Positions 58 through 10,655 of a stretch of DNA of 64,000 bases are shown here, in pieces (position 1 is the first letter of the stretch; every line of letters begins with the position of its first letter). Source of the DNA: a virus; IMG/VR virus record IMGVR_UViG_3300008267_000054, positions 1-64,000 of that record; one strand, written 5' to 3'. Under the pieces are notes generated by a model. The model had not been told where the DNA came from. It ran no database searches and was given only the letters and a program-made list of their open reading frames with translations. The position numbers and the translations under genes were made by a program.

Positions 58-68
58 GTTCTTTAACA
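58..68 (+). promoter_or_regulatory. boxA-like antitermination element
   Basis: GTTCTTTAACA resembles rrn boxA (TGCTCTTTAACA); at the 5' end of the stable-RNA locus; second copy at 1040-1051. Confidence 0.55.
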
Positions 69-69
69 T

Positions 70-918
70 CACAAGATTATCCGTTCAATCAACGGACTTC
101 GGTTCTAGATTGATAAAGATATATTGGCCGCTTATGGTCATTAAATAAACTGGGAAACCAGTATAAAGTGGATCTGCCATGATGAGGTAGATTTGCGGCT
201 TCGCAAGGAGCTTGAGTAAGCAAGCGAGATATCATTGGTCCTTAGTAGTCGAGGGTAACACTGTAGGCGAATTGGATTGGTGACTTGGCAATGTGGGTTG
301 TCAGGTTGAGCTCGGAAGAGCAATAAGAATAACTCGTAGGTGTATTGTAAGAAGTGTAGTTCATCTGACTGCATCATTACGCTCACCAATATAAGAGGCG
401 TCTTAAAACCGAAAGGTATGTAGGTGTACGAGTGGTGTCGTTACTTACCTTGAGATCGATTTACCAGAGTTGGTTTCTCGAAGAGGTCTTAAAGTATGGA
501 AGCAGGGATGTTTCAGAGAGTAGTTTGGTATTGATTCTGCCAAAAGCGGGGTCAGCTAAGTCGTTGGGCCACTACTTTCCTTATCCACAGTCGCTAACTA
601 AATTATGTAAATAATCGAAAAGCAAAAGTGCCCATCAGTCACCGACGAAAGGTGCCTACACAGTAATGGGTTGTCCATTGCCATCAGAGGTCGCAAGCCA
701 ATGGTGAATTGCTTGAAAGGTTTGTAGTCCCGCAAGGATTAATTAGCTCGGCAGAGTTGAACAGATTGAGTACAGTGAGAGTAGTCGAAATACAAGTGAC
801 TCAAGAAGTGGTTGGTCTAACCAACCGGCATTGTTAGGGTAGTACTCAAAAGGTACTGGACAAGAAGGGAAACAATAATCCAACAAAAGTCCTAACACTT
901 AAGCTGTAGTCTCAGGCT
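70..918 (+). ncRNA. Giant structured ncRNA, GOLLD-like (boundaries approximate)
   Basis: ~850 nt with no credible ORF, GC-richer than flanks; many GNRA/UUCG hairpins (84-95, 150-161, 199-210, 408-417, 689-699, 726-740) and other stems (810-826, 841-857); directly upstream of tRNAs in a phage, the typical GOLLD context. Confidence 0.72.
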
Positions 919-933
919 TCTATTATGGTACAT

Positions 934-1005
934 CGCGGGATAGAGCAGAGGTAGCTCGTCAGGCTCATAACCTGAAGGCCGAAGGTTCGAATCCTTCTCC
1001 CGCAA
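934..1005 (+). tRNA. tRNA-fMet (CAT), initiator type, no encoded CCA
   Basis: Acceptor CGCGGGA/TCCCGCA with C1:A72 mismatch; anticodon arm TCAGG-CTCATAA-CCTGA; T loop GGTTCGAATC. Confidence 0.95.
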
Positions 1006-1011
1006 CTAATT

Positions 1012-1040
1012 AGCCCTTCTAACACAAGGGCTTTTTTCTT
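1012..1040 (+). terminator. Intrinsic terminator after tRNA-fMet
   Basis: AGCCCTT-ctaacac-AAGGGCT followed by a T run. Confidence 0.75.
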
Positions 1041-1051
1041 GTTCTTTGACA
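1040..1051 (+). promoter_or_regulatory. Second boxA-like element before tRNA-Glu
   Basis: TGTTCTTTGACA, 3 nt before tRNA-Glu. Confidence 0.5.
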
Positions 1052-1054
1052 CAT

Positions 1055-1128
1055 GCTCCGTTCGTCTAATTGGTTAGGACATCTCCCTTTCACGGAGAAG
1101 CTTACGGGTTCGAGTCCCGTACGGAGTA
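1055..1128 (+). tRNA. tRNA-Glu (TTC), no encoded CCA
   Basis: Acceptor GCTCCGT/ACGGAGT; anticodon arm TCTCC-CTTTCAC-GGAGA; T loop GGTTCGAGTCC. Confidence 0.95.
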
Positions 1129-1130
1129 CA

Positions 1131-1513
1131 ATAGCAGTTCTGTTGCATATAGGAGGAAAATTATATGGAAACACTATCATTTGCTTTTGGTATGCTTGCG
1201 ATGATTGCAGTAGCATTAGTTGCTGTAGTTGTTGTAGGTATGATGAAGGTAATCAAAACTCAAAAAGAAGTAACAACTTTGGCGCAGTGGATGGACCGTA
1301 GGGATACGGATTTACATCAACGAATAAGCAATGAAGTTAATAACCTCGAACGCGTTGTTGCGGATGATCGTAGAGAAATAAACTTGCGTATTGATTCATT
1401 CAATAGCTATGTTGATTCTCGACTCGACAAAATGGAAAACAAATTTATTGGTGCTAACAGTGCCAAAAAACAAATTATTAACGACTAAAAATTAACAAGC
1501 ACAGAACTGCTAT
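1131..1513. repeat. 13-bp perfect inverted repeat (1131-1143 / 1501-1513) enclosing ORF 1165-1488
   Basis: ATAGCAGTTCTGT and ACAGAACTGCTAT are exact reverse complements; extendable by GC/GC with a 1-nt bulge. Confidence 0.9.
1165..1488 (+). CDS. Membrane-anchored coiled-coil protein
   Basis: N-terminal hydrophobic helix, heptad-like body; AGGAGG at 1151-1156. Confidence 0.8.
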   Translation: METLSFAFGMLAMIAVALVAVVVVGMMKVIKTQKEVTTLAQWMDRRDTDLHQRISNEVNNLERVVADDRREINLRIDSFNSYVDSRLDKMENKFIGANSAKKQIIND

Positions 1514-1517
1514 ATTT

Positions 1518-1599
1518 GCCCCTTTGTTGGAATTGGTAGACATCTTAGACTTAGGATCTGAGGCCGCAAGGTGTGAGAGTTCGAGTCTCTCAGGGGGTA
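1518..1599 (+). tRNA. tRNA-Leu (TAG), no encoded CCA
   Basis: Acceptor GCCCCTT/AGGGGGT; anticodon arm TTAGA-CTTAGGA-TCTGA; long variable arm; T loop AGTTCGAGTCT. Confidence 0.93.
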
Positions 1600-5028: not shown

Positions 5029-5322
5029 ATGAACAGACTACACGTTAAATTTATTAAATGGGTAGCCAATAAATTTGGTTACAAAATTGCAATGGTTAAA
5101 GCACTAAATGGAACAACATCCTTCGAAGGTGATAATGAACTATTAAGATATACCGACTTATCAGGTTATCTTTTTAAGAAAGAACCTCTATCTCGTATTC
5201 AACCAAGTAAAGCACCTACATCAGCCAAGGAAATGTTTTTAGCTGAGCCTAAACCCGATGTAAGTAAGATACCACCAATTACAAAATTAACACCTGAACA
5301 ATTAAAAGAAATTGGGTTATGA
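5029..5322 (+). CDS. Hypothetical protein
   Basis: ATGA overlap with thyA. Confidence 0.7.
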   Translation: MNRLHVKFIKWVANKFGYKIAMVKALNGTTSFEGDNELLRYTDLSGYLFKKEPLSRIQPSKAPTSAKEMFLAEPKPDVSKIPPITKLTPEQLKEIGL

Positions 5323-6467
5323 ACAACATAGATAAAGATTATTTAAGTCTTTGTGAAGACATTTTACATACCGGAGTACAAAAGAATACTCGTAATGGTA
5401 AAGTTATAAGTGTATTTGGAAGACAGATCCGTCATAAAATGAGTGATGGATTTCCTTTATTAACAACCAAAAAAATGGCATGGAAACAAATTGTAACAGA
5501 GTTACTTTGGTTTTTAAGAGGTGATACCAACATTAAGTTTCTTTTAGATAACGATTGTCATATTTGGGATGGGGATGCTTATAAGAACTATTTTATCGAA
5601 AAAAGTAAAGAAAGAGGTCCTTTTGGTGTTAGTGGTTTAATTTTACCACAAGAAGAATTCATCAACAAAATCAAAACAGATGATGAGTTTGCTAAGACGT
5701 GGGGTGAATTAGGGTCGATTTATGGTAAGCAATGGAGAAATTGGAAGCAATTCATACCCTATGATGTGACAGAAGAAAATTGTAAAGTTGCAGTTCAAGT
5801 AACAGACCAAATCGCAAACCTAATCAACGACCTTAAAACAAATCCAGACTCAAGACGATTAATGGTTTCAGCTTGGAATGTAGGTGAATTGGATCAAATG
5901 GTACTTCCACCTTGTCATTATGGATTTCAAGTTTATACAAGAGAGTTGAGTTCTGAAGAAGTAGCATTTGAAGCAAATAAACGAGGATTTAACCTTGAAG
6001 GAATGACAATTAGTGGTAAATTGATAATCAACCCTAAAGAAGTTAAAGAACATAACCTACCAACCAGAGCAATCTCTTTAATGTGGAATCAACGAAGTGT
6101 AGATGTTCCATTAGGTTTACCATTCAACATTGCTTCGTATGGTTTATTACTTCATATATTAGCAGAAGCAACAAACATGATACCAGATGAATTGATTGGT
6201 AATTTAGGTGATTGCCACATTTATGAAAATCAAATTGATGGTATTAAAGAACAATTAACGAGAGAGTCATTTGAGTTACCTTCGCTAAATATTAACACAG
6301 AGTTTTGGCCTACTGAAAATGGTTCTTGTGGTGAAGGTCCGTTAGATGCAATTGCAGTGTTTAATGCATTTAAAGATGAAAACTTCTGCAAATGTTTATT
6401 GAATGAAGATATTCAGTTAGGCAATTACAAGTATCATCCAGCAATTAAAATGCCTTTATCAAACTAA
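5319..6467 (+). CDS. thyA: Thymidylate synthase with loop insertions
   Basis: FPLLTTKK, ELLWFLRG, YGKQWR, SRRLMVSAWN, LPPCH, QRSVD..LGLPFNIASY, GDCHIYENQ. Confidence 0.97.
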   Translation: MNNIDKDYLSLCEDILHTGVQKNTRNGKVISVFGRQIRHKMSDGFPLLTTKKMAWKQIVTELLWFLRGDTNIKFLLDNDCHIWDGDAYKNYFIEKSKERGPFGVSGLILPQEEFINKIKTDDEFAKTWGELGSIYGKQWRNWKQFIPYDVTEENCKVAVQVTDQIANLINDLKTNPDSRRLMVSAWNVGELDQMVLPPCHYGFQVYTRELSSEEVAFEANKRGFNLEGMTISGKLIINPKEVKEHNLPTRAISLMWNQRSVDVPLGLPFNIASYGLLLHILAEATNMIPDELIGNLGDCHIYENQIDGIKEQLTRESFELPSLNINTEFWPTENGSCGEGPLDAIAVFNAFKDENFCKCLLNEDIQLGNYKYHPAIKMPLSN

Positions 6468-7053: not shown

Positions 7054-8241
7054 ATGAAGAAATTAATTGCACTCTTATCACTAACAATCACGACATTGTT
7101 TGTGAATGCGCAGGATCTAACATTTGATTCTGTTGCTACTATCTCTCCCTACTGGGGATTAAAATTTGAATCCGGTACATCCGGAGATCCGTGGATGAAC
7201 TGCGGACAAACTAATACCAACTTTCAAACAGGTCAACCTTATTTGCTTGCTCGCTTTCCGATCAGATTAGCAAATATGGGAACCAATGTTGCTTACTTTG
7301 GTACGTATGGAGTAACACCTGGTATTACTCATGATTCTTGTTACAATAATCAGTTTACTCAAGCTACTGATTATATTAACATTCCCAACTTTGTATTAGC
7401 TACTATCACGGATTCGTGTGGTAATGTTGTTGGCAGCTCTAGAAAAACGGATTGGAATATTCAAAACAATTCTGTTTTTGTAATGGATAAGTACAATGGA
7501 CAGTGGACCTATCTCACAAATTATTTTGGTACACAACCAACTACTGGTAATGCCGCTAACCCAACCAAAGATTGGTTAGAATCTATTTGTGGTCCACTAG
7601 ACACAACTTTAGCAGTTATAGGCAAAGCACAGATGAACACCTACTACAATAACTGTTTAGTGTGTGACAGCTTAGTGTTATTTCCAAACTATGCATCAGA
7701 TGATTATAGTGTTATTCAATTACCAACAAACTTAGGACCTGGACACTACAAGCTAGTTCTTGCAGGTAATTTTAGCCCGTATGAAACAACTAATTGTTAT
7801 CCAAACACATTAACCGTTCCTTTTTATTGGGATGGTTCTGTTGGTAGTAGCCCAACTTATCCGTACTTTGCTAATGGTGTAACTTACGGTGCTAATACAG
7901 CTTGTGTGCAAGTTCCACCAAATACTCCTACTAACGTTGCATCACAGTTAAATAATGGCATTGTATTGGTAACTTGGACATATCCATCCTACCCACAGAA
8001 TGTAACTGGATTTGAGATTACGCCTATATTTGTTCAAGGTAATACGGAACGTAGTTTAATTAACAGAGCTAAATTTTCTACAAACATTAGCGTTGTATTT
8101 GATGCAGCTCAACTGCGTAATGATGCAATTGCATTAGGTGCTGGTAACGGACCAGCCAAATACAAATTTGCTGTTAAAGCTATTAATGGATCTGTGACTT
8201 CTGTAGAAGTTAAGACTAGGCAAGCTTTGAATGTAAAGTAA
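7054..8241 (+). CDS. Secreted protein with degenerate lysyl-oxidase-like domain and C-terminal FN3 domain
   Basis: Sec signal (..VNA/QD); LLARFPIRLANMGT and LGPGHYKLVLAGN resemble the LOX fold; PPNTPTNV...VTW...YKFAVKAIN is FN3-like. Confidence 0.6.
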   Translation: MKKLIALLSLTITTLFVNAQDLTFDSVATISPYWGLKFESGTSGDPWMNCGQTNTNFQTGQPYLLARFPIRLANMGTNVAYFGTYGVTPGITHDSCYNNQFTQATDYINIPNFVLATITDSCGNVVGSSRKTDWNIQNNSVFVMDKYNGQWTYLTNYFGTQPTTGNAANPTKDWLESICGPLDTTLAVIGKAQMNTYYNNCLVCDSLVLFPNYASDDYSVIQLPTNLGPGHYKLVLAGNFSPYETTNCYPNTLTVPFYWDGSVGSSPTYPYFANGVTYGANTACVQVPPNTPTNVASQLNNGIVLVTWTYPSYPQNVTGFEITPIFVQGNTERSLINRAKFSTNISVVFDAAQLRNDAIALGAGNGPAKYKFAVKAINGSVTSVEVKTRQALNVK

Positions 8242-10112: not shown

Positions 10113-10655
10113 ATGAAGTATGTTATTATGATTGTAGCAATGCTACTATCAATTAATACCTTCGCCCAGGTAGAATTATTAGGAACAGCGGATGGGCAGG
10201 TTAGTAGGCTAACTGACAATATTCTGTATGACATAGTACAGACTGATCAGTATGGTAAGGTTTTAGCTACAATAGAACCTAAAGAGACTAGCTTTTTTAT
10301 ATACTCTGATTCTCTTTATTCACTACTGAGCATTACACAAATCTATAATGGTTGCATAACTAGCAACGCTGGTGATTATGATTACTGGTTAGTCGAGCGT
10401 ACAAGCAATGTAGATCCTTTAGTCTACCCAAATCCTACTACAGGACAGTTATTTGTAGCTCTTAATGTGTTGAGTGAGGACTTATTTGTATCAATTTACG
10501 ATATACAACTAAGACAAATGGTATCGCAGAAATTAACAGATTTTATTAGCACTGTGAACATAAGTAGCTTATCGGAAGGTACGTATCTTCTTGATATAAG
10601 AAATAAAAATCAAACTTTTAAAACAACAAAAATATGTTTAGTAAAAAACAAATAG
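10113..10655 (+). CDS. Small secreted protein with T9SS type A C-terminal sorting domain
   Basis: Sec signal (..TFA/QV); LVYPNPTTG...IYDIQ...VNISSLSEGTYLLDI...TTKICLVK. Confidence 0.85.
   Translation: MKYVIMIVAMLLSINTFAQVELLGTADGQVSRLTDNILYDIVQTDQYGKVLATIEPKETSFFIYSDSLYSLLSITQIYNGCITSNAGDYDYWLVERTSNVDPLVYPNPTTGQLFVALNVLSEDLFVSIYDIQLRQMVSQKLTDFISTVNISSLSEGTYLLDIRNKNQTFKTTKICLVKNK

Follow-up and report, generated by a model that had tools for sequence, protein, structure and literature searches.

A predicted long-range RNA helix encloses a small membrane-protein gene among the tRNA and tmRNA genes of uncultured phages

Pairing between the two untranslated regions (UTRs) of a single messenger has been described in Bacillus subtilis and in Staphylococcus aureus. 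In the hbs mRNA of B. subtilis, a small monocistronic cellular message with its own promoter and terminator, a helix of at least 14 base pairs (bp) joins the 5' UTR to the 3' UTR and controls the access of ribonucleases, while initiating ribosomes protect the remainder; the 14-bp interaction modulates cleavage by RNase Y and provides the nearest experimental precedent for the case described here (PMC5737220). In the icaR mRNA of S. aureus, pairing of the 5' UTR with the 3' UTR of the same molecule covers the Shine-Dalgarno (SD) sequence and blocks translation, and the duplex is a substrate of RNase III (PMC3868564). Here we analyze an inverted repeat that encloses an open reading frame (ORF) of 107 amino acids (aa) between a tRNA-Glu and a tRNA-Leu gene in the IMG/VR virus record IMGVR_UViG_3300008267_000054. 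The window under study, 64,000 nucleotides (nt) in length, is the first 64 kilobases (kb) of this record, which measures 116 kb, belongs to an uncultured lake phage and is estimated to be 67% complete. Sequence comparison indicates that the repeat encodes a long-range RNA helix of about 20 bp, in which the 5' UTR of the gene is paired with its 3' UTR. With a probability that we put at roughly 0.45, the helix would be a terminal panhandle: tRNA-type processing would excise an mRNA from a stable-RNA precursor, and the helix would define, seal and insulate this mRNA, with the ribosome-binding site left open.

The phage helix resembles that of hbs in linking the two UTRs of one small mRNA; however, it is longer, its ends abut genes for tRNA or transfer-messenger RNA (tmRNA), and its conservation, with covariation, extends over 66 phage loci. 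The pairing of 5' UTR and 3' UTR within the same message is also shared with icaR, but the phage SD sequence lies outside the helix and is not occluded by it. As in the stalks of ribosomal RNA (rRNA), a long-range helix, typically about two turns long, is formed from the flanks of the mature RNA in the setting of a polycistronic stable-RNA transcript with tRNAs; unlike those stalks, the phage helix encloses a translated mRNA of 92-139 codons with an open ribosome-binding site, and its cleavage by RNase III is hypothetical. Two further systems bear comparison. In the tRNA punctuation of mitochondria, mRNAs are likewise directly flanked by tRNAs, and RNase P and RNase Z could define their ends in both cases, whereas the present locus belongs to a bacterial phage, has tRNA or tmRNA genes called on both sides in only 12 of the 66 loci (the window included) and adds an end-pairing helix, which is not known to belong to the mitochondrial model. 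The invertons of Bacteroidota have inverted repeats of 15-25 bp around a few hundred bp, and the setting here is probably also Bacteroidota; unlike them, the phage repeat has variable ends, a strand-specific G:U asymmetry and one orientation in 66 of 66 loci. A covariation-supported helix around an entire bacterial-type ORF, or any helix around an ORF in a phage tRNA cluster, was not found in the literature searched, supplementary files being outside the search.

In the window, the core arms of the repeat (1131-1143 and 1501-1513) are 13 nt long, 100% complementary and 357 nt apart according to a repeat search, in agreement with the earlier note on this sequence, which had described a perfectly complementary repeat here. 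If T1144 is bulged, the pairs G1145-C1500 and C1146-G1499 are added, so that the 5' arm occupies 1131..1146 and the 3' arm 1499..1513, both on the plus strand, the latter beginning 10 nt past the stop codon. The gaps to the neighboring genes were also given correctly in that note, being 2 nt from the tRNA-Glu discriminator (A1128) to the 5' arm and 4 nt from the 3' arm to the first nucleotide of tRNA-Leu (G1518). Its argument against chance is borne out: when the two 45-nt flanks were shuffled, the stem score of 26 was reached in none of 5000 trials (mean 11.7, standard deviation 2.2, maximum 25), and the same score tops those of all 114 called ORFs in the 116-kb genome (next 21, median 12). 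The 389-nt RNA spanning 1129-1517 contains the terminal stem in both its minimum-free-energy and centroid folds and has a z-score of -6.2; the antisense strand of the same interval folds at z = -3.0. No other inverted repeat of at least 14 nt with a spacing of 80-1500 nt was detected in loci L002-L016 or in the first 12 kb of the window, and this single occurrence per examined locus indicates that the helix is specific to the ORF cassette. The runner-up ORF-flanking complementarities, at 86115-86837 of contig C1 (score 21) and at 7054-8241 of the window (score 20), stay below the shuffle maximum of 25 and are probably due to chance.

Relatives of the cassette were collected from IMG/VR and from metagenome contigs of up to 274 kb, by protein searches and then by an 18-letter pattern made of the inner arm plus the SD sequence; the 44 pattern matches comprised 35 cassettes, seven that were unrelated or without an ATG, and two running off the contig. 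After removal of identical copies and of loci with short flanks (at least 50 nt being required), 66 distinct elements remained. The survey of related phages for homologous ORFs with flanking repeats and compensatory changes that the earlier note had proposed thus yielded a positive result. A long-range helix is predicted in 66 of 66 elements when the duplex is computed between the 37 nt upstream of the ribosome-binding site and the 45 nt after the stop codon, with energies from -19.7 to -31.8 kcal/mol, 12-27 pairs (median 20.5) and z-scores of -4.0 or lower relative to shuffles in every element. At least 20 pairs are formed in 38 of the 66 elements and at least 15 in 65, the minimum of 12 being that of L052. 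The arms themselves are diverse: the 5' arm has 52 different sequences among the 66 elements, and from group to group its outer half differs completely while remaining complementary to the partner arm in every case. Covariation was counted on a 44-row MAFFT alignment used without editing, ten divergent rows with a misaligned 3' arm being kept; 92.4% of helix cells are paired, and sliding the 3' partner by 1-3 columns lowers this to 29-48%. Changes on both sides were observed in 13 of 18 helix pairs and in 80 cells, compared with 22.4 +/- 4.1 in shuffles, none of 500 of which reached 80. RNAalifold applied to the MAFFT alignment with its ten misaligned rows did not return the terminal helix; it returned the internal hairpin described below.

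The mismatches within the helix also argue that the repeat acts as RNA, as the earlier note had supposed. When all internal mismatches were scored alike over the 66 elements, G:U was found 43 times on the sense strand versus two cases of A:C, which is equivalent to G:U on the other strand. A repeat maintained only as DNA should show both about equally, and the excess of G:U therefore points to pairing selected in the sense-strand RNA. A purely DNA-level role, with the arms serving as inverted promoter-like or protein-binding motifs, as an inverton or as the terminal repeats of a mobile cassette, would account for some features of the loci: the inner half of most 5' arms is a copy of a motif that is found elsewhere without a partner (G-TTCTTT-G/A-A-C/A-A followed by three bases, about 14 nt in all), some apparent G:U positions (GAC/GTT) are permitted variants of this motif, and the cassette stands behind seven different types of tRNA or tmRNA. 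However, the outer half of the arms, which lies outside the motif, covaries, and G:U dominates there as well, with 13 distinct G:U contexts versus two A:C contexts; the stem of L052 has no motif, and the arms of L044 and L037 differ outside it. The motif thus does not remove the RNA helix. In addition, the termini are variable, unlike transposon ends, and the ORF is co-oriented with every tRNA or tmRNA gene within 700 nt in 66 of 66 elements. Its 107-aa product is modeled as a single helix and not as a recombinase. We regard a DNA-only function as very unlikely, and the insertion cassette that the earlier note had offered as an option is not supported: variation is concentrated at the outer ends of the repeat, and none of the 66 elements has a tRNA or tmRNA gene on the opposite strand at a distance of up to 700 nt.

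The placement of the helix relative to stable-RNA genes is recurrent, particularly at its 5' side. In 33 of the 66 elements, ARAGORN calls a tRNA or tmRNA gene that ends no more than 20 nt ahead of the 5' arm; the gene is tRNA-Met, Leu, Thr, Gln, Glu or Asp, or tmRNA. The gap between discriminator and 5' arm is -2 to 5 nt in 31 of these 33 loci and most often 1 nt, and in the two outliers, L013 and L015, the arm reaches the tmRNA end once G:U pairs are allowed. Rfam matches to tRNA or tmRNA end at the 5' arm in L033 and L072, and in seven further loci a tRNA-like gene of 105-118 nt that ARAGORN does not call ends right at the 5' arm (L005 2832-2946, L009 2842-2950, L010 2832-2947, L039 578-696, L043 744-854, L049 764-879 and L057 253-368). 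This tRNA-like gene, which has no Rfam match at E <= 0.01, has a 7-bp acceptor, a T-arm with an unusual loop and an enlarged loop containing the conserved sequence GUCGACAUA; in L059 such a gene stands directly upstream of tmRNA instead. In loci of the L008 type, which have no upstream tRNA, an extra copy of the motif is found directly ahead of the 5' arm. At the other side, a tRNA or tmRNA gene starts -1 to 32 nt past the 3' arm in 17 of 66 elements, and tmRNA directly flanks the cassette in 16 of the 66 loci. The exact abutment to both tRNA ends that the earlier note had emphasized consequently recurs at the 5' arm, in 31 loci, but is looser at the 3' arm, where seven of 17 gaps measure 15-32 nt.

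The sequences following the 3' arm also bear on whether the helix may function as a long-range intrinsic terminator or attenuator that, together with a following U-run, ends transcription after the ORF. In L003 and L007 the 3' arm runs straight into seven to eight T residues; L004, L005 and L010 have shorter T-runs there. No T-run follows where a tRNA, a tmRNA or a separate terminator comes next (the window, L002, L008 and L012); L008 has a separate terminator hairpin after the 3' arm, and the same GC-rich palindrome is found in L012. As it is generally held that a hairpin with a loop of 330 nt makes a poor terminator, termination by the helix appears hardly probable. A stem followed by a full U-run, as in an intrinsic terminator, was found only in L003 and L007 and is absent from the window and from most loci.

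The arms leave the signals for translation free. They lie between the tRNA end and the SD sequence and between the stop codon and the next gene, respectively, so that the pairing is one of 5' UTR with 3' UTR; at the related loci the 5' arm stops 12-33 nt ahead of the ATG, the stop codon is followed at 1-15 nt by the 3' arm, and the SD sequence and the start codon are thus unpaired. In the window, the perfect AGGAGG that had been noted ahead of the ORF is present at 1151..1156 on the plus strand, 8 nt before the ATG at 1165, in an unpaired stretch between two helices. An unpaired AGGAG is found 3' of the 5' arm in 62 of the 66 elements, and the four elements without an SD sequence still retain the helix. 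Elsewhere in this phage such sites are scarce: an SD-like 4-mer occurs at positions -20 to -5 of 15 of the 114 phage genes, which is fewer than the 23 found in an in-gene control, and AGGAG or GGAGG precedes only six of the 114. The SD sequence of the cassette therefore stands out. Separately, the sequence CUCCUA(UA), about 20 nt past the 3' arm and before the next ORF, was seen in L010, L011, L049, L057, L060 and L061; it is complementary to UAUAGGAG of the cassette SD region and might offer an alternative pairing or be coincidental, the loci forming a single subgroup of close relatives.

A second helix is located downstream of the start codon. This conserved, G:U-rich hairpin of 29 pairs (1182..1251, plus strand) begins at position +18 of the ORF, lies in the part coding for the membrane anchor and was found by RNAalifold on the alignment of relatives. 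Its cells are paired in 96.2% of cases, compared with 34-44% when slid by 1-2 columns and 61-65% when slid by a whole codon; changes on both sides occur in 59 cells versus 17.7 +/- 3.4 in shuffles, a signal that stems in part from codon composition. The terminal helix, which ends near -19, and the internal hairpin together frame about 35 nt of open sequence around the start codon.

The 107-aa product of the ORF itself (1165..1488, plus strand) begins with a membrane anchor and continues as one long helix. The transmembrane segment predicted in the earlier note fits the hydrophobic residues 5-27, and AlphaFold models a single continuous helix over residues 2-106 with a mean pLDDT of 83.8. Homologous ORFs encode 84-139 aa and share the N-terminal anchor, starting M-E/N-T, and a long helical tail; conservation is concentrated at the N terminus and in a C-terminal D-S-R-x-D-K / K-K-Q motif, and the family splits into two C-terminal subfamilies. 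All matches to curated families in Pfam (DUF4446, DUF948), PHROGs and NCBIfam fell under the cut-off. Hits in the ESM Atlas were clusters of viral hypothetical proteins, the nearest named one being 'Mu-like releasin' at 0.85, which is a lead only. Homologues were found neither in 50,697 cultured phage records by tblastn nor in 185,579 prokaryotic genomes.

The strong SD sequence acquires a particular meaning if the host is considered. The product of an ORF in the window (10113-10652) matches PF18962, the C-terminal sorting domain of type IX secretion, with 46.9 bits (cut-off 27). This domain is not known outside Bacteroidota. Together with the G+C content of 35.6% and the near absence of SD sequences, it indicates that the host is likely a member of Bacteroidota. 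Ribosomes of Bacteroidia are reported to be blind to SD sequences unless the protein bS21 is absent (PMC7797042, PMC9976891, PMC13000453). The helix may accordingly be viewed as a translation device that brings the stop codon beside the ribosome-binding site, in a closed loop favoring re-initiation, and/or displays a rare strong SD sequence that host ribosomes normally ignore, so that the ORF would be read only by a special ribosome state. Such a device would agree with the frequency of AGGAG in the cassettes relative to SD-like 4-mers in phage genes, with the type IX secretion domain and the reported SD-blindness of Bacteroidia (PMC9976891, PMC13000453), and with both helices ending at about the edges of the footprint of an initiating ribosome. 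We nevertheless consider it improbable: the host assignment is indirect, no bS21 gene was detected in the 116-kb record, the four elements without an SD sequence retain the helix, and the tight abutment to tRNA ends is left unaccounted for. A combined version, in which a stable-RNA-like messenger is cut from a tRNA, tmRNA and GOLLD precursor and sealed by the helix, with an SD sequence unreadable to normal Bacteroidia ribosomes and the protein made only by bS21-free or phage-modified ribosomes, is likewise rather unlikely; if true, it would tie a membrane function of the phage to the condition of its translation machinery.

Starting from the observed helix, its conservation at the RNA level, its placement and the free ribosome-binding site, it is plausible that the terminal panhandle arises as follows. 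Through presumed co-transcription, the mRNA for the small membrane protein would be embedded in a stable-RNA transcription unit of the phage that also comprises GOLLD, tRNAs and tmRNA, and it would be freed from the precursor by the enzymes that mature its neighbors. The 5' end may be generated by a cut at or just past the 3' end of the upstream tRNA or tmRNA, and the 3' end by RNase P at the 5' end of the downstream tRNA or tmRNA, or by termination. The helix would then close both new ends into a panhandle with overhangs of a few nt, which would protect the mRNA against 3' exonucleases and against nucleases that depend on a 5' end and would keep the coding loop of about 330-420 nt from mispairing with neighboring structured RNAs, while the ribosome-binding site, about 35 nt between the terminal helix and the internal hairpin, would stay open. 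RNA contigs from relatives are consistent with this proposal, as two of them bridge tRNA-Glu and the 5' part of the ORF (X12, 1025-1266, and X19, 1097-1266; one each from two runs of the same study). Relatives' metatranscriptome contigs also cover 88-1044 of the window, the GOLLD region reaching summed depths of tens to thousands in two freshwater metatranscriptomes. The 3' half of the ORF and the 3' arm have almost no cover by RNA contigs, which is uninformative.

Several points weigh against a sealed panhandle. The RNA data are assembled metatranscriptome contigs, which cannot prove transcription and in which RNA ends are not visible. A terminator-like hairpin lies upstream of tRNA-Glu, which complicates the placing of a promoter for the unit, and the RNases in question are those of an uncultured host. 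The tight abutment is far more 5'-sided than 3'-sided, given the seven of 17 wider downstream gaps. The motif of the inner 5' arm occurs also in unpaired form, 3 nt before tmRNA, tRNA-Glu and GOLLD, and if it is a promoter, some shorter transcripts would start at the SD sequence and be devoid of the 5' arm. Finally, about 20 bp is also what RNase III needs, and the helix may therefore be cut rather than kept.

The last point defines the main competing explanation, which we hold to be possible but tentative, namely a processing stalk as at 16S and 23S rRNA. RNase III would cleave both strands and separate the mRNA from the flanking tRNA or tmRNA, exonucleases and RNase P would then finish the neighbors, and the cleavage may either activate or destabilize the message. 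The clustering of helix lengths at two turns, around the median of 20.5 pairs, and the stable-RNA operon setting are those expected of such a stalk, and the linker of 0-5 nt after the upstream tRNA offers little single strand for another endonuclease. Precedents are found in the established RNase III-cut stalks of rRNA (PMC6582327) and in the icaR duplex (PMC3868564). On the other hand, no RNase III gene was found in the 116-kb record, so that the host enzyme would be required; L052 has just 12 pairs; and the 29-pair internal hairpin would be at risk of cleavage too. Sealing by a panhandle and cutting by RNase III are not mutually exclusive.

The least probable fate of the helix-held ends is their ligation into a circular mRNA, which the earlier note had envisaged. 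By established enzyme chemistry, cuts by RNase Z and RNase P would leave a 5'-phosphate beside a 3'-OH. The gene content of the 116-kb record lends this idea no support, as it has no RtcB, and the only RNA_ligase family match (13.8 bits, under the cut-off) falls in an ORF without a Pfam family; in addition, the overhang lengths differ between loci.

Outside the cassette, the motif of the inner 5' arm, of which 1137-1150 in the window is a degenerate copy, resembles a unit-start signal, which could be a compact promoter or a signal for RNA cleavage. Copy 1 (58..71, plus strand; GTTCTTTAACA plus 3 nt) is unpaired and lies upstream of the 5' domain of GOLLD, and the motif has the same relative position in L013, L015 and L072. 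Copy 2 (1041..1054, plus strand; GTTCTTTGACA plus CAT) ends directly at the 5' end of tRNA-Glu. These two copies are the close non-coding matches in the 116-kb genome, weaker ones being far from the stable-RNA cluster. Without a complementary partner, the motif also occurs 3 nt before the 5' end of tmRNA in seven labeled loci, and before a tmRNA-type 5' end in L005, L046 and L047 (read from sequence) and in L006, giving the set L004, L005, L006, L012, L014, L016, L038, L043, L046, L047 and L059. A terminator T-run often precedes it. Scans for sigma-70-type promoters gave matches at chance level only, and the consensus of the Bacteroidota -7 box is upstream of only six of 114 genes. The 116-kb record contains no match to sigma-70 region 2 and none to a T7-type RNA polymerase, for which the control search matched nowhere either.

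The stable-RNA cluster opens the record, in the order GOLLD, tRNA-Met, a terminator-like hairpin, tRNA-Glu, the 107-aa ORF and tRNA-Leu, all on the plus strand. GOLLD RNA extends over 72..918; its 3' domain (516-918) matches Rfam RF02032 with 261.5 bits (E 1.5e-74) against a gathering threshold of 150, and its 5' domain probably occupies about 72-515. tRNA-Met(CAU) at 934..1005 was called by ARAGORN and Rfam, and its C1:A72 mismatch, as read from the sequence, is the mark of a bacterial initiator tRNA, which would make it of the initiator type. It is followed by the terminator-like hairpin with a T-run at 1012..1038. tRNA-Glu(UUC) occupies 1055..1128, with CA after the discriminator and no encoded CCA according to the sequence, ARAGORN and Rfam, although ARAGORN places its end at 1129 by including one extra C; a CCA-adding enzyme was not detected in the 116-kb record. 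tRNA-Leu(UAG) was placed at 1518..1599 by ARAGORN and Rfam. A blastn search with 900-1700 of the window matched only tRNA parts. Rfam detects GOLLD in five of 16 loci with about 3 kb of flank (the window, L010, L011, L013 and L015). We know of no function in phages for either tmRNA or GOLLD. GOLLD is often near tRNA islands according to a cryo-EM preprint on this RNA, and tmRNA genes have been reported in 2.3% of phage genomes (PMC9004378).

Some other features of these clusters and of the phage may be mentioned. A group I intron match was found at L050 430-646 in the same kind of cluster, and over-long Rfam tRNA matches of 104-115 nt (L008 2309-2415, L033 1352-1455, L049 437-551 and L066 474-581) suggest intron-containing tRNAs. 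The gene set of the phage is myovirus-like, with baseplate wedge proteins, a large terminase, a portal, a head protease and an endolysin. The thymidylate synthase encoded at 5319-6467 of the window has 382 aa and matches the 266-position Pfam profile end to end, which implies an insertion of roughly 110 aa, and a single ORF of 1052 aa at 45074-48229 matches an SbcD-like nuclease subunit in its N-terminal part and an SbcC-like one in its C-terminal part, an apparent fusion.

The pairings in hbs and icaR are single-gene cases found by experiment, whereas the phage helix constitutes a family of 66 sequence-diverse members. This family would represent a natural mutational series for the effects of end pairing on the survival, processing and translation of an mRNA. 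The association ties a conserved protein gene to tmRNA and to GOLLD RNA. It suggests that the tRNA arrays of phages may serve as expression platforms beyond the supply of tRNAs, on which a protein gene would borrow the processing and stability logic of stable RNAs.

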